From NCBI GenBank assembly GCA_041389885.1, contig JAWKRB010000006.1, positions 259,101-323,100 of the forward strand: 64,000 bases of DNA, in the 5' to 3' direction. Numbering within the stretch: position 1 is the stretch's first letter; every line of letters begins with the position of its first letter. The translations under genes and the position numbers were made by a program. The notes beneath the pieces are model-generated. The model did not search any database. It was given only the letters and a program-made list of their open reading frames with translations, and was not told the DNA's origin. This document shows, one piece after another, positions 53,782 to 61,101 of the stretch. Source of the stretch: Polyangiales bacterium. GTDB lineage: Bacteria > Myxococcota_A > Polyangia > Polyangiales > Ga0077539.

Positions 53782-55077
53782 TCAGCGGGGCTCCCAGCGC
53801 AGGGTCTCGCCGCCGCCGCCGAGGATCCGCTGTTGATTCAGCCCGTCCTGGTTCATCAGGTAGATGCCGCCGCGGCTGGAATTGAAGGCGATGAGCCGAC
53901 CGTCGGGCGAGAAGGTGGGATCGGTGTTCGTGCCCTGGTTCTCGGTGAGCCGGCGCGTCGCGCCGCTCGCGACGTTGACGGTGTAGATGTCGGTGCTGCC
54001 GCCGACGCGCCCTGAGTACACCAGCAGCTGGCCATCGGGGGACCACGAGGGCGAGGTGTTGTAGGTCCCGGTGAAGCTCACCCGCCGCGCGCCGCCGCCG
54101 CTGGCGCTCATCACGTAGATCTGCGGTCCGCCCGCGCGATCGCTCACGAACGCGATGCGGGAGCCGTCGGGGGACCACACCGGCGAGACGTCCGCGCCAG
54201 CGTCGTTGGTGACGCGCCGGAGGTTCGCGCCGTCGGTGCCCCCCACGTAGATCTCGCTGTTGCCGTCGCGCGTGAGCACCACGGCCATGCGCGACCCTGA
54301 GAACGCCGCGCCCATGACCAGCCCGTCGGCGCGGAGGATCGGCTCCCGCGAGCCCTGACGGAACAGCGCGAGGAATCCCTCGGGCGTCTGCGATGAGAAG
54401 TAGATCCCGCCCGGGCCCCACGCGGGGAGGAACGAGAGCCTTCGCCCCGACGAGACCTGCGCGAGGTTCTCTCCGTCGCAGTCGACGGTGAACACGGCCT
54501 TGCGCCCTCGGCCCGTGCGCCGCGCGAAGGCGATGCGGGTGCCGAAGATCCCCGGGGTCTGGGTGTAGAGCTGGATCAGGTCGTTGGCGATGCGGTGCGC
54601 CACCGCGCGGGGGCTCGCTGGACCGTACGAGCGAGAGAGCCGCGGCGCAGAGGGGGCGCCGGGCTCCCACACCCGCAGCTCGACGCGCGTCGCGTCGCCG
54701 CTGCCGGTGCTGCTGCCCTTCACCACGGCGGTCGCGCCCACGCCCGCCCAGGAGCCGGCGTTGATGTTCAGCCCCTCGGCGTCGAGGTCGGCGGTGAACG
54801 AGTGCGGGTCGAGCACGCGAAAGAGCGACGAGAGCCGCAGGTCGTTGGAGAGAACCGCCGAGATCTGGTCGCCGCCGGGGCCGCGGAGCGCGGGGATCGC
54901 GACCGGAAGGAGCCGCGACTCCAAGCCCTGCAGCGAGACCGTGATGTCGCCACCCCCCGCGGGGACCTGCGGCGCGGGCGCTTGAGGCGCCGGCTGGGCG
55001 ACGGAGATGTAGGGGGGGAGCAGGGCCAGTCCCGCGGCGACGCCGACCAGCGACCAGGATTGGAGGGTTCTCTTCAC
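53782..55077 (-). CDS. tolB: TolB periplasmic beta-propeller protein
   Basis: Signal peptide, TolB N-terminal domain, and repeated SPDG/SWSPDG beta-propeller blades. Confidence 0.8.
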   Translation of the reverse strand: MKRTLQSWSLVGVAAGLALLPPYISVAQPAPQAPAPQVPAGGGDITVSLQGLESRLLPVAIPALRGPGGDQISAVLSNDLRLSSLFRVLDPHSFTADLDAEGLNINAGSWAGVGATAVVKGSSTGSGDATRVELRVWEPGAPSAPRLSRSYGPASPRAVAHRIANDLIQLYTQTPGIFGTRIAFARRTGRGRKAVFTVDCDGENLAQVSSGRRLSFLPAWGPGGIYFSSQTPEGFLALFRQGSREPILRADGLVMGAAFSGSRMAVVLTRDGNSEIYVGGTDGANLRRVTNDAGADVSPVWSPDGSRIAFVSDRAGGPQIYVMSASGGGARRVSFTGTYNTSPSWSPDGQLLVYSGRVGGSTDIYTVNVASGATRRLTENQGTNTDPTFSPDGRLIAFNSSRGGIYLMNQDGLNQQRILGGGGETLRWEPR

Positions 55078-55116: not shown

Positions 55117-55980
55117 TCATTGCGACTCGGGCTCGACGTTCACGTTGATGTTCCGGTCCGCGAGCTGCGCGAGCTCCTCGGGCGACAGGCCCGGGATCTC
55201 CGCGTGCTGCGCGACCAGCCGCTGCGCCTGCGCGACGTAGTCGTTGTCGAGGCTCTCGTTGCCCGAGGGCTGAGACAGCTCGGCGCCCACGATGGTGCCC
55301 GACCCGCTGATGCGCAGGCGAAATCGAACGCGGCGGCGGTCGCTGCCCGTGAGGGTCTGCGTGCGGTGAATGTTGCGCTGCAAGAACTCCTGCAGCTTCG
55401 CGATGGCGCCGTGGCTGGCCTGGCTCGGGTCGGTGGTGGTGCCCACCGCGCTGCCCGTCGCGGCGCCGGGACCCGCCGCGGTCGGGTCGGCGGCCTGCTC
55501 CGCCGCGGCCATCTGGGCGATGCGGTCCATGGTCTCCGCGAGGTCCTGGTTGCCCCGGCCGCGCACGGTGCGTCGGGTGATCGCGGCCATGTAGTCCTGC
55601 GCGCCGGCGTCGGGTCGCAGCGCCACCGCGGTGGGGTCTCGCACCGGGGTGATCGCCGCCGGCGCCGCCCGCTCGGCGCGCACGGGCGCCTCGCGATGAA
55701 TCACGCGCCTCGGGTCAAAGCTCCCGCCCCCGCGTCGCAGCAGCTGGGTCGAGACCACCAGCTCGTCGCGGCGGGGCGGCGGGGTGCGCGCGACGTTGCC
55801 CTCGTCACGGCCAAGGCGAAGCGCCGCCCCCGCGACGGTCGCGTGCACCAACACCGCGAGGAACACCCCCGTCGCCACGCCCCCACGGTCGTTCGTCCCT
55901 GTCTCCACCCCGCCGCGGCGAAGAGGAGAAGGCGGAATCGACGGCGACGACGGGAGCGAAGGCGGAATCGAGGGCGTCAT
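55117..55980 (-). CDS. tolA: TolA/TonB-family protein (energy transducer)
   Basis: Pro/Ser-rich N-terminus, a TM segment, a long charged central region, and a TonB/TolA-like C-terminal domain. Position between tolR and tolB. Confidence 0.5.
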   Translation of the reverse strand: MTPSIPPSLPSSPSIPPSPLRRGGVETGTNDRGGVATGVFLAVLVHATVAGAALRLGRDEGNVARTPPPRRDELVVSTQLLRRGGGSFDPRRVIHREAPVRAERAAPAAITPVRDPTAVALRPDAGAQDYMAAITRRTVRGRGNQDLAETMDRIAQMAAAEQAADPTAAGPGAATGSAVGTTTDPSQASHGAIAKLQEFLQRNIHRTQTLTGSDRRRVRFRLRISGSGTIVGAELSQPSGNESLDNDYVAQAQRLVAQHAEIPGLSPEELAQLADRNINVNVEPESQ

Positions 55981-56033
55981 GAGGCCTCCTGAGCCTGTCA
56001 GGGTCTGTACCAGAATCCCGGTCACCCTTGGGA

Positions 56034-56197
56034 TGTGTACAAACTGTGTACAAAGCTGGTCCGTTGACGGGGGAGATGGTCAAAAAATGATGCACATGGG
56101 CAAAAATTGATGCTCTACAGACGAGGCCGAGATCGCGGATTCTCCGCAAATACTGGGTGTCGGACCCTTGGCATCGTCCATGCACAATGATTGTGCA
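56034..56197. promoter_or_regulatory. AT-rich divergent intergenic control region: tandem TGTGTACAAA x2 (56034-56054), TTGACG, direct repeats GGNCAAAAA(A/T)TGATGC(A/T)C x2 (56078-56115), and the 17-bp palindrome TGCACAAT-G-ATTGTGCA (56181-56197)
   Basis: Read directly. The region is strongly AT-enriched relative to the ~72% GC background and lies between tolA (-) and the ECF sigma gene (+). Confidence 0.5.
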
Positions 56198-56228
56198 ACA
56201 CGGCCCCTACGCCGACGGAGATTACGCC

Positions 56229-56822
56229 ATGGATGCCCAGACGACCGCTTCAGCCCGTTCGACCGACCTGATCCCTGTGACAGCCGACATTCGTAAGACG
56301 GTCGAAGCTGCCTTTCGATCCTACGAGTCCCGGCTGTTTCACACGGCGCTTCGCATCACCCGCAACGACCAGGACGCGTGGGACGCCGTGCAGGAGGGCA
56401 TGGTCAGCGCCCTCCGCAACGCCGAGCGCTTTCGCGGCGACTCGGCCGTCGCGAGCTGGCTGTACAGCATCGTGGTCAACGCCGCGCTCTACCAGCGTCG
56501 CCGCGCCACCTCGCGCCGCCGCGGCATGGACCGCTTCGTCGAGAAGGTCTGGCCCGACGCCGAGCTCTCCCTCGAGGCGGGTACGGTGCAGCACGACCCC
56601 GAGGCGCACCTGATGGCCAAGATCGACCTCGACCGGGTCTCCGACCGCATCGCCGAGCTCCCCGCCGACCGCCGCGAGCTCCTCGAGCGCGCGCTGGGCG
56701 GCGACTCGTTTCAAGACATCGCCGACTCCATCGGCGAGCCGGTCGCGGCGGTGAAGAGCCGCGTGTGGCGCACCCGGGTCGGTCTCCGCGCGGAGTTCGG
56801 CGAGACCCTCGCGGCGGCCTGA
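56229..56822 (+). CDS. ECF (sigma-70 family group IV) sigma factor
   Basis: Region 2 (AAFRSYESRLFHTALRITRNDQDAWDAVQE) and region 4 (LPADRRELLERALGGDSFQDIADSIGEPVAAVKSRVWR). ATG at 56229 chosen; the upstream extension contains the palindrome. Confidence 0.7.
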   Translation: MDAQTTASARSTDLIPVTADIRKTVEAAFRSYESRLFHTALRITRNDQDAWDAVQEGMVSALRNAERFRGDSAVASWLYSIVVNAALYQRRRATSRRRGMDRFVEKVWPDAELSLEAGTVQHDPEAHLMAKIDLDRVSDRIAELPADRRELLERALGGDSFQDIADSIGEPVAAVKSRVWRTRVGLRAEFGETLAAA

Positions 56823-56825
56823 GCG

Positions 56826-57266
56826 CTACTGAGAAGAGACGGGGTCGGTGACGATCCCGAGCTTCTCGACCCCCGCCTCGCGCATCATCGCGAGCACCCG
56901 CACCACCACCCCGTACGACACGCTCTCATCGGCCTGCAGGTAGGCCTCGTGGTCTCGCTGCACGATGGCGTTGGCTCGCAGTCGCTCGGTGAGGCGCTCG
57001 ATGGGCACCTGGTCCTGCCCGACCCAGATCACGATGGGCGAGCGGGGGTTGTTGAGCTCTTGATGCCCGAGGGTGATCTGGAGCTTCTGGTCCCCGACCT
57101 GCATCTCGGGCGCGTTGGCGTTGGGGAGGTCGACCTTCATGCCGGCCTGCACGAGCGGCGCGGTCACCATGAAGATGATCAGCAGCACGAGCATGACGTC
57201 GACCAGCGGCGTCACGTTGATATCGCTCATGGGGCCGCCGCCCCCGCCTCCGGATGTGAACGCCAT
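56826..57266 (-). CDS. tolR: ExbD/TolR biopolymer transport protein
   Basis: Single N-terminal TM (VTPLVDVMLVLLIIFM) plus an ExbD periplasmic domain. Confidence 0.8.
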   Translation of the reverse strand: MAFTSGGGGGGPMSDINVTPLVDVMLVLLIIFMVTAPLVQAGMKVDLPNANAPEMQVGDQKLQITLGHQELNNPRSPIVIWVGQDQVPIERLTERLRANAIVQRDHEAYLQADESVSYGVVVRVLAMMREAGVEKLGIVTDPVSSQ

Positions 57267-57285: not shown

Positions 57286-58020
57286 TCACTTGAGGATGTG
57301 CCGACGGACGATGTTCAGGAAGTCGTTCCCGAAGATGTCCATCTCGTTGGAGATCACGCGGATCTGCCGCACGAAATAGTTGAAGCCGATCACCGCGGGG
57401 ACCGCGGCGACGAGGCCGACGGCGGTGGTGAACAGCGCCTCGGCGATGCCCGGGCCGACCCGGTCGATGGTGCTCGACCCCTGCGCGCCCGTGAGCTGCA
57501 AGAACGCATGCATGATCCCGTACACCGTGCCGAACAGCCCGATGAAGGGCGCCGTGCTGCCCGTGGTCGCGAGGAAGGGCACCATGCTCTCGAGGATGGT
57601 CGTCTGCCGCGAGGTCGCCCGGCGCAGCGCCCTCTCGATGTTGCCGATGTCCGCCGCGGCCTCGTCGTCGGTCGACGCGGCCTTGACCCGCAGCAGCTCC
57701 TCGTAGCCGGCCTTGTACATCTGGGCGACGGGGCTGCGCGTGAAGCGCGTCGCGGCTTCGGCGGCGATGTTGAGCTGCCGGGTGTCTTCGAACACCTTCA
57801 AGAACGACTCGTTCTCCGCGAAGGCCCGCCGGATGTACAGCCACTTGTAGCCGATGATGTACCAGCAGATCACCGAGAACAGCAGCAGGATGAAGAGCAC
57901 GACCTTCACCGGCAGCGTCGCCTGCCAGATCAGGTCGAAGGTGCCGGGGATCGCGGTCGGCGCCCGACCCCCCTGCTGCTGGTGCATGTGGACCAGGTAC
58001 CCGTAGATCACATGGTTCAT
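57286..58020 (-). CDS. tolQ: MotA/TolQ/ExbB proton-channel protein
   Basis: Three TM helices. Conserved C-terminal TAPFIGLFGTVYGIMHAF motif. Confidence 0.8.
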   Translation of the reverse strand: MNHVIYGYLVHMHQQQGGRAPTAIPGTFDLIWQATLPVKVVLFILLLFSVICWYIIGYKWLYIRRAFAENESFLKVFEDTRQLNIAAEAATRFTRSPVAQMYKAGYEELLRVKAASTDDEAAADIGNIERALRRATSRQTTILESMVPFLATTGSTAPFIGLFGTVYGIMHAFLQLTGAQGSSTIDRVGPGIAEALFTTAVGLVAAVPAVIGFNYFVRQIRVISNEMDIFGNDFLNIVRRHILK

Positions 58021-58166
58021 GAAGGTCGCACGGGGGTATCGCCGCAGGTGCACCGCTGTCAATGCGTGGCGACGCTTGCGACGGCGACTCGGTACGGTTC
58101 AGACTGCGCCGGGTGCGCGGAGACGAAGAGAGAATTCGGTACCAGACGCCCACGGTGACCCGAACC

Positions 58167-58826: not shown

Positions 58827-61101
58827 TCAGGCGTCGCCGCGCCAGGGGCGGTCGGACTCGTACTCCTCCTCGAGGTCGTCGGCCAGGGCCGCGCGCACCT
58901 GCGCGGGCAGGTCGTCGAGCGCGATGCGGGTGCCCTTCGCGCGCCGCACCGCGTGCTCGATCGCGGCGTCGAGCTCGTCGAGGTTGCCCGGCCAGCGGTA
59001 GCTCCGGAGCGCGAGCGCGGCCTCAGGGCCGACCCCCAGCGCCGCGCGGCCGTGCACCCGGCACGCGCGGTCGATCGACAGCAGCGTGAGCGACTCGAGG
59101 TCCTCGATCCGCTCGCGGAGCGGGGGCACCCGCACCGTGCGCTCGGAGAGCATGTCGAGCAGCGCGCGAGGGAGGTCGAAGCGCTCGGGTCGGTCGCGCA
59201 TCGTCACGACGACGCGCACGTCGACCGCGTAGCCGTGCTCGGCGCCCAGGCGCCGCGACGTGCCCGTGCGAAGCGCGTCGACGAGGGCGACCTGGGCGTC
59301 GTGTCCCAGCGCCGGGAGGTCTTCGAGGACCAGCGTTCCGCCCGCGGCGTGCTCCAGCCAGCCCGCGCGCTCGGGGCTCTCGCGGGCGTCGCCCACCAGC
59401 GCCGCGAGCAGCCCGTCGAGGCGCGCGCCCCCGGCGTCGAGGATCACGAACGGAGACGCCGCGCCGGGGCCCTGGTCGTGCAGCACCTTCGCGATCGCCG
59501 CCGCGCCCGCTCCTCCCTCCGACACGAGCGCCACAGGACCCCGCATCGAGAGCGCGATCGCCTTGTCTCGCAGCGACCTCGACGTCGCCGCGTACGCCGT
59601 CCAGCGCTCGTCGCGCTCGCCCAGCGCCCGCATGCGCCTGGCGCCCTCGTGGAGCGCGACGAGCCGCTGGGTCTCTCGCGACGCCTCGACCGCGAGGCGG
59701 TCTGCGCCCTCGGCGCGGGTCACGGCCTCGTCGGCGCGGGCGCGCGCGGTCGAGCGCCGCCAGCATCGAGACCACGCCCTCGACGCGCAGCGCGAGGGCC
59801 TCGACCCGGAGCTGCTCCTCGTAGCTCGGCACGGCGGTGCGCGCGCCGCGAGGGATGAGGATCGCCCCCACCAGCTCCTCCCCCTCGCGCAGCGGCACCG
59901 CGCCGAGCGCGCCGAGCTCGTCGAGCGCGGAGACCAGCGGGCGCAGCTCCGCGCGGCGCACCTCGTAGGGGCGGAGCGTGTCGGTGAACACCGCGCCGGG
60001 GCGCGCGCGCATCCACGACAGCACCGGCCGCGCGGTGTCGAGCCCCAGGGTCGCGCGCCGGGCCCCGCCGCTCACGTCGATGTGCAGCGCCTCGCGCTTG
60101 TTCAAGAGCCAGATCGCCGCGGGGGCGCGGAGGTTGCGGGCCGCCGCGCGGAGCGGGTCGAGCACGGCCGCCGCGAGGTCGATCTCGTCGCGGACCGCGG
60201 GCAACAGGCGCTCGACCTCGTCGCACGCGTCCAGCAGCCGGCCGTCGTCAGGGCGGAGCCGCCTCTCGAGCACCGGGATGAGCGCGAAGGTGGTCGCCAG
60301 GGCCACGCAGACCGCGAGCAGCGGCACCGAGGGGAGCGCGAGCGCCAGGGCGCCCCCCGCGAAGAGACCCGCCAGCGCGGCCGCGCTGCGACGCGCGAGG
60401 AGGGCCGAGCGGTCGAGGCCGAGGGCGCCGGTGCCGGCGGTGAGGCCGATGACCTGCGCCGAGGCGCCTGCCGCGAGCACGAGGGGGGAGACGTCGCGGC
60501 CCCACATCGCCCGCACGAGCATCGCCGCCGCGAGGATCGCCGCGCCGACGCCCGGCGCGATGAGCCGCGCCCGCTCCATGGGCATGAGGGGTCGGCGCAC
60601 GGCGTGGAGGTGGTAGAGCGCGCCGAACGCGCTCGCGCCGAACGCGCTGTACGCGCCGAGGGACCAGTCTCGCGTTGCGGCTGGCCACATGGCCAGGGTC
60701 GCGAAGCCGCCCACCAGCAGTCCCGGCAGCGCCGCGCGGCGAAGCGTGTCGACGCGCAGGGGGAGCGCCGCGGCCATCGCCGTCGCCACCCCGAGCACCT
60801 CGCCGAACAGGATCGCCTGCACCACCCGGAGCGCGTGCGTCGGGGGAACGGTGCCGGCCACGGTGGTCGCGACCAGCGAGGCCGCGAGGGCGCCGGTGAT
60901 CAGCGCGGCCTCCGCGGCGACGGGCGCGATGGCCGCGGCGGCGCGTCGGGGCGCGAGGGCGCACACGCCCGCGAGCGCGAGCGTGGCGGCGCCCTCGAGG
61001 GTCACGGGCCGACCCGAGAGCGACCACGCGGAGACGGCGACCCCCGCGCTCATCAGCGCGGCGAGCTCGCTCCAGGGCGCTCTCTCTCGTAGGGGTGACA
61101 T
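58827..61101 (-). CDS. Membrane (~8 TM) - GAF-like - degenerate sigma-54-activator-type AAA+ domain protein; frameshift in a (CG)n tract near 59738-59752; no DNA-binding domain
   Basis: ATG at 61101 with GAGGAG RBS. Frame A runs to ...VVSMLAALDRAR. Frame B runs from ...ADEAVTRAEGADRL... to the stop at 58827. AAA+ motifs: Walker B GGTLVLEDL, RFDLPRAL, PPLRERIEDL, YRWPGNLDELD. Walker A is SEGGAGAAA with no Lys, and there is no GAFTGA. Confidence 0.5.

Follow-up and report, generated by a model that had tools for sequence, protein, structure and literature searches.

The stretch of DNA analysed here, referred to as the window, is 64 kb long and contains a tol gene cluster that is interrupted by a gene for an ECF sigma factor on the opposite strand. 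The ORF list and profile assignments place tolQ (57286–58062), tolR (56826–57266), a tolA-like gene (55117–55980; 287 amino acids, with AGGAGG before the ATG at 55980) and tolB (53782–55077) on the reverse strand. The sigma gene (56229–56822; 197 amino acids, Pfam Sigma70_r2 and r4_2, NCBIfam sigma70-ECF) lies on the forward strand, convergent with tolR and divergent from the tolA-like gene. The tolA-like product has a weak Pfam TonB_2 match at its C-terminal end (E = 2e-4), and the position of its gene between tolR and tolB is kept in orthologous loci. The divergent genes are separated by a spacer of about 250 bp with a G+C content of 51–52%, compared with 66–83% in the flanks. The search of GTDB MAGs yielded 24 close relatives, comprising 20 orthologous loci and 4 paralogues located elsewhere, and further orthologous loci were drawn from metagenome contigs; one of these (L064, the contig with P0003) was left out because its upstream sequence would not align. 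The order tolQ-tolR, opposite-strand sigma gene, tolA-tolB is conserved in at least 20 loci. An Rfam scan of positions 55500–56800 at a permissive threshold returned only two matches, both at chance level and to eukaryotic families, so there is no known RNA element in this region.

The stop codons of the sigma gene and tolR are 3 nt apart (56822–56826), with no predicted intrinsic terminator in the gap, so the two convergent transcripts should overlap. The placement of an opposite-strand gene inside a set of co-oriented, functionally linked genes is the arrangement of a noncontiguous operon, and transcripts reading through from tolQR would run antisense to the sigma gene and in the sense direction of tolA-tolB. 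On the tolA side of the spacer, CTGGTACAGA (56004–56013, reverse strand), which resembles an extended −10 element (TGnTA), is located 25–30 nt upstream of the tolA start. Among the 27 loci scanned, 23 have it, as TCTGGTA(C/G)A, TGTGGTACA or TGATA; it is 93–100% identical in two relatives (L058 and L059), lies outside the interval given in the preliminary description of this DNA, and is a candidate extended −10 promoter element of tolA. Since tolA has its own conserved upstream element, read-through from tolQR is not required for its expression. The TGnTA element is without the usual final T of a −10 hexamer.

Two further genes near the cluster deserve description. The neighbour at 58827–61101 (reverse strand) corresponds in L061 to a 759-amino-acid membrane protein with a degenerate sigma-54-interaction AAA+ domain, in which the Walker A lysine is lost and GAFTGA is replaced, and which is without an HTH. 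In the window this gene is split over two frames (change near 59747–59749), by a frameshift or an assembly error, and at least 11 loci keep it in synteny with the tol-sigma cluster. In L005 (4578–6278, reverse strand), and also in L006, L007 and L010, which form one clade, a 566-amino-acid hybrid histidine kinase with GAF, HisKA, HATPase and receiver domains is encoded between the sigma gene and tolR. This inserted kinase may feed into the circuit of the sigma gene.

The preliminary description of this DNA correctly reported that no anti-sigma gene adjoins the ECF sigma gene and that the region contains no ECF-type AAC/CGT promoter. With no anti-sigma partner, the activity of the sigma factor would be set mainly by a transcriptional switch. 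Its homologues (n = 94, mostly 195–203 amino acids) come from uncultured Myxococcota/Polyangiales. Searches against NCBIfam gave only generic ECF matches, none of which reached its equivalog cut-off (the highest score, 90.7 bits for PRK11922, compares with a required 204), and by sequence the protein falls outside the HrpL/ECF32 group. The C-terminus ends in Ala-Ala in 80 of the 94 homologues, and here reads ...LAAA (56814–56822). In the orphan ECF sigma factor AntA, a C-terminal di-alanine is a ClpXP degron (PMC8999054); by analogy, the sigma factor studied here may be short-lived through its conserved C-terminal Ala-Ala.

Upstream of the sigma gene, TGGCAT-cgtcc-ATGCA at 56169–56184 (forward strand) has the form of a sigma-54 promoter, with GG at 56170–56171 (−24) and GC at 56182–56183 (−12). 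Matches were accepted when the GG and GC doublets were 10 nt apart and at least 9 of 11 positions agreed with TGGCAC-N5-TTGCA. The element in the window scores 9/11, its −12 part being ATGCA and not TTGCA, and it is the sole match at or above this score on both strands of the window (128 kb). Of 26 orthologous loci, drawn from MAGs of uncultured Polyangiales/Myxococcota, 24 have a site scoring 9/11 or higher in the zone 40–200 nt ahead of the sigma ATG; the other ~351 kb of sequence gave five such sites only, a frequency that predicts about 0.06 in the target zones. Among orthologues the element takes the form YGGCAY-N5-TTGCT, in which the hexamers are conserved and the N5 spacer is variable. 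We infer that TGGCAT-N5-ATGCA is the −24/−12 promoter of the sigma gene and that its transcription depends on sigma-54. Neither an RpoN box nor an rpoN gene is present in the window, and Myxococcota encode sigma-54 (PMC9765219, PMC12754779). Searching 56020–56200, from the repeats to the promoter, for the IHF consensus with up to two mismatches gave no site. It is very improbable that the −24/−12 match is coincidental and that a sigma-70 promoter, or an ECF promoter under autoregulation, drives the sigma gene instead. A sigma-70 match (TTGACG-16-AATGAT, 56064–56091) and a GCAAC in the right arm of the downstream palindrome could be taken for such promoters, but L058, the relative at 98%, already departs from TTGACG, a CG-containing element at a suitable distance from GCAAC exists only as the Shine-Dalgarno sequence ACGGAGG, and the −24/−12 element is conserved in 24 of the 26 loci.

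Paralogues of the sigma gene are found outside the tol cluster in L011, L018, L020 and L021, three of them in one MAG. Those in L020 and L021 also have −24/−12-like elements. In L011 and L018 the sequence is GGAAC where the orthologues have GGCAC, and GTAACG-type dyads precede it, so these two may belong to a different promoter class.

The usual distance of 12 nt after the −12 GC places the predicted transcription start at about 56195 and gives a predicted 5′ UTR of 56195–56228, with a hairpin formed by CGGC (56201–56204) and GCCG (56211–56214) and a Shine-Dalgarno sequence, GGAG, at 56217–56220. Hairpins were evaluated from folds of each sequence separately; MAFFT misaligned loops of different length. 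In most orthologues the hairpin begins 5–7 nt past the predicted start, with unrelated stem sequences, and is followed downstream by ACGGAGG and then the start codon. This position fits the predicted start near 56195. The differing stems suggest that selection acts on the structure, for example through mRNA stabilisation. A 15-nt inverted repeat (56132–56146/56216–56230) was considered as a mask of the ribosome-binding site and rejected, as it is not conserved in L058.

The spacer contains three sets of repeats. The sequence TGTGTACAAA occurs in tandem at 56034–56043 and 56045–56054 (period of 11 nt), the 18-mers GGTCAAAAAATGATGCAC and GGGCAAAAATTGATGCTC lie at 56078–56095 and 56098–56115 (20 nt from start to start), and a perfect palindrome, TGCACAAT-G-ATTGTGCA, leaves 31 nt between its end and the ATG at 56229. 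All three had been listed in the preliminary description, with coordinates that were off by about 1 nt. None of these motifs recurs elsewhere in the 64 kb, with 0.01–0.09 occurrences expected from shuffled sequences, and the random recurrence that would have spoken against them was thus not seen at this scale. In a footprint alignment with relatives at 98%, 81% and ~73% protein identity, the conserved blocks are 76–100% identical to the relatives, compared with 32–47% for the intervening spacers. Because conservation is block-wise, the repeats are phylogenetic footprints and more than chance. This bears out the earlier view of a genuine regulatory region with conserved sites of the protein-binding type, the binding itself being predicted from sequence. 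We give hardly any credence to the explanation that the repeats are accidents of an AT-rich spacer or part of an N-terminal coding extension of the sigma gene from GTG 56157. One perfect 8+8 palindrome is roughly expected in 64 kb and the reading frame is indeed open from 56157, but the block-wise conservation and the specificity of the motifs argue against accident. The longer ORF, which had been raised as a possibility in the preliminary description, conflicts with the alignment of homologue N-termini at the ATG at 56229 and with an in-frame stop codon in L059 39 nt upstream of the ATG, and the promoter would fall inside the supposed extension.

The palindrome is not a free-standing operator. 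This dyad, S3 (TGCACAA-TGA-TTGTGCA, 56181–56197, about −14 to +3), overlaps both the −12 element and the predicted start of the sigma-54 promoter, which had been missed, and its left arm is itself the −12 element. The tandem TGTGTACAAA repeat likewise had to be reinterpreted: relatives do not preserve the direct repetition, and what L058, L061 and L001 retain is a 17-bp dyad, TGnnCAA-N3-TTGnnCA. In the window this dyad, S1, reads TGTACAA-ACT-GTGTACA (56036–56052, centre at about −151) and matches TGNNCAANNNTTGNNCA at 9 of 10 positions; it is TGTACAA-ACC-ATGTACA in L058 and TGAACAA-ACC-TTGTTCA in L061 and L001, and its identity to relatives is 76–88%. By sequence, S1 and S3 are the same motif, placed ~145 bp apart. 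Matches to TGNNCAANNNTTGNNCA at 9/10 or better number 15 at the promoter and 6 at S1, and two further dyad copies (L013 and L023) fall between the promoter and the sites upstream of it. Elsewhere, away from the promoter, S1 and spacer positions upstream of the sigma gene, only 2 copies occur in 241 kb. S1 and S3 are 144–145 bp apart in five loci; three others have distances of 149, 181 and 181 bp.

Within S3 the two arms carry different weight. In many unrelated metagenome sequences TTGCTCAA follows −24 elements and is a common −12 context, so that the left half of S3 is simply a good −12 region and only the right arm counts as independent evidence for an operator. The right-arm block (56185–56197) is 69–100% identical to relatives, and 100% in L058 and L059. 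The promoter is kept in clade C without the S3 right arm, so the right arm (56190–56197) is not a promoter requirement. S3 also occurs in a symmetric variant, TGCTCAA-AGG-TTGAGCA, in L003, and with the same arms and the spacer ACC in L014. A dyad that covers the core promoter and is conserved beyond what the promoter needs makes S3 a probable operator for a putative binding protein. To our knowledge, operators placed directly over sigma-54 promoters are uncommon. A metagenome scan with the composite TGGCAY-N5-TTGCTCAA-N3-TTG, which sought a regulon, matched at least 120 contigs; among the 120 matches listed, no contig had the sigma gene or the upstream repeat motif, and the high-G+C ones among those listed look like unrelated sigma-54 promoters. 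The dyads bear some likeness to LexA, CRP/FNR, Fur and PurR boxes, but these were rejected as identities for them, as the two middle bases of each half-site are free to differ from one orthologue to another.

Between S1 and the promoter lie the direct repeats DR1 (TGGTCAAAAAATGATGCAC, 56077–56095, centre at about −109) and DR2 (TGGGCAAAAATTGATGCTC, 56097–56115, centre at about −89). DR2 is 89% identical to DR1 over 18 nt and is located two helical turns from it. DR1 is 79–95% identical to relatives and DR2 45–75%. Both have little internal dyad symmetry in the window, which becomes clear only in the orthologues, where the place of DR1 is taken by GGTCACGAAACGTTGCAC or TGCAACGAAACGTTGCT dyads. 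The upstream dyads of orthologues include GGTCAC-GAAAC-GTTGCA and TGCAAC-GAAAC-GTTGCT, and also GCAACG-AAA-CGTTGC, and a third clade has a different pair of sites, GGATCATCC and GAAATCATCCAC. Two upstream dyad-like sites are thus found in every clade, Group-B orthologues included, and their sequence differs between clades; this clade-wise change of paired sites suggests that they have co-evolved with a dedicated activator. Dyads at a distance of more than 50 bp upstream are the usual form of enhancer sites, and the presence of several such sites assists oligomerisation (PMC12754779). At least two conserved sites are indeed present ~80–150 bp upstream here, their symmetry being weak in the window. 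DR1 is therefore a probable main enhancer site for a sigma-54 activator, and DR2 a putative second, weaker activator site. No gene for a GAFTGA-type activator was found in the window or within ~4 kb of any orthologous locus, so the activator must be encoded elsewhere. The sole match to an NtrC central-domain probe is the degenerate domain at 58896–59528.

The repeats are less distinct from one another than the preliminary description had proposed. That they exist was upheld; that they are three separate elements was not, since S1, DR1, DR2 and S3 are all built from TGNNCA hexamers in a 6-N5-6 layout and S1 repeats the S3 motif. TGNNCA occurs 7 times in 56026–56228 against 0.7 expected (P ~7e-6). 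The half-sites nonetheless form two classes, KGYMAC in the repeats, with a conserved asymmetric GAAAC centre in orthologues, and TGNWCAA-N3-TTG in S1 and S3. This bears on a possible, though rather doubtful, alternative in which one NtrC-like activator binds all four sites and no separate repressor would be needed: S1 and the repeats would serve as the enhancer, and S3 would be a governor of low occupancy that limits or stops transcription once the activator is abundant. The common hexamers and layout speak for this reading. S3 further agrees with the NtrC enhancer TGCACC(W4)TGGTGCA at 10 of 12 half-site positions and shares its A/T-rich centre (PMC4987338), Myxococcus xanthus NmpR uses the same geometry (PMC11841059), and M. 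xanthus PexR is a dual repressor-activator enhancer-binding protein (PMC12754779). However, a single activator fits poorly with the two classes of half-sites and with Group-B orthologues, which are without S1 yet keep S3 and both repeats.

S1 could also have a different target. We consider it unlikely that S1 mainly regulates the divergent tolA promoter and not the sigma gene, a reading suggested by its spacing: S1 starts 28–30 nt from the tolA TGnTA element in five loci and 37 nt from it in a sixth, which puts its centre near −47 of the putative tolA start. In L061 and L001, however, the distance to the tolA motif is 61–63 nt, and S1 is still 144 bp from S3 and 40–41 bp from DR1. Group-B orthologues have the tolA motif without S1, and the tolA promoter is itself a prediction. 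The spacing of S1 is thus kept to tolA in some lineages and to the sigma promoter in others, and the joint control of tolA and the sigma gene suggested in the preliminary description is a putative one.

Taken together, the 250-bp spacer is likely the enhancer-dependent, sigma-54 promoter region of an orphan ECF sigma gene. The proteins that would occupy it, and the sign of their effects, are read from the positions of the sites. In the mechanism that we favour, sigma-54 RNA polymerase would bind TGGCAT-N5-ATGCA as a closed complex, and an AAA+ enhancer-binding protein would remodel this complex so that transcription starts near 56195, and would not start otherwise. The activator, encoded elsewhere, would sit at the 18-bp repeats at about −109 (strong and conserved) and −89 (weak), and in the resulting mRNA a short hairpin at the 5′ end would precede the ribosome-binding site. 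A dimeric protein bound to the promoter dyad would exclude sigma-54 polymerase, which is why we read the dyads, most likely, as elements of negative or limiting control, possibly with looping between S1 and S3; the distal copy S1 may stabilise the protein on the promoter dyad in this way. A more elaborate proposal, which we consider quite unlikely, is a hitherto undescribed envelope-surveillance circuit in uncultured Polyangia that would have the sigma gene as its output and would combine an unlinked sigma-54 activator, a dyad clamp (possibly an S1–S3 loop), antagonistic sigma and tol transcripts and a neighbour-encoded sensor or anti-activator. Within this proposal, the sigma/tol antagonism may operate as a noncontiguous operon, and the sensor may be the membrane protein with the dead sigma-54-interaction domain.

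If the enhancer-dependent reading is right, uncultured myxobacteria of a large clade probably regulate an ECF sigma factor that has no anti-sigma partner by a cascade from sigma-54 to ECF, as is the case for hrpL, and not by anti-sigma release. Negative control of a sigma-54 promoter could then be tested on the conserved dyad that covers the −12 element and start, and the conserved placement within the Tol cluster ties the switch to the cell envelope.

Comparison with known systems indicates that the regulatory design is a known one, found here in a new lineage, that of uncultured myxobacteria, and in a new gene context. By analogy, the closest counterpart is the control region of hrpL in Pseudomonas syringae, an ECF32 sigma gene that is transcribed by sigma-54 with HrpR/HrpS and subject to negative feedback at its promoter region (PMC5263251, PMC8999054). 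Both sigma factors are without an anti-sigma partner, and both genes have a divergent intergenic region with a sigma-54 promoter, upstream activator sites and a negative element overlapping the control region, these elements being predicted in our case. The phylum and the ECF lineage are unrelated to those of hrpL, no IHF site was found here in the searched interval, the activator genes are not adjacent, and the surrounding genes form a tol cluster and not a secretion-system cluster. The negative elements also differ: here it would be a dyad over −12/+1, whereas in hrpL it is an occluding divergent ECF promoter. With respect to noncontiguous operons and excludons, in which an opposite-strand gene lies inside an operon (PMC11034616, PMC7154746), the sigma gene is similarly embedded between tolQ-tolR and tolA-tolB, as judged here from sequence alone, but tolA has its own conserved upstream element. 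NtrC-type enhancers, as in Escherichia coli/Salmonella glnAp2 and M. xanthus NmpR and PexR, resemble the sites described here in having at least two 17-bp copies with a 6-N5-6 layout, ~80–150 bp upstream of a −24/−12 promoter (PMC4987338, PMC11841059, PMC12754779), and S3 agrees with the NtrC form TGCACC-N5-GGTGCA at 10 of 12 positions. Their half-sites are TGCACC, in TGCACC(W4)TGGTGCA (PMC4987338), or GCGCA, in the NmpR site GCGCA-N5-TGCGC (PMC11841059), in contrast to TGNWCA and KGYMAC here. A further difference is that one copy here is located on the promoter itself, and this promoter-overlapping dyad is the least ordinary feature of the region.
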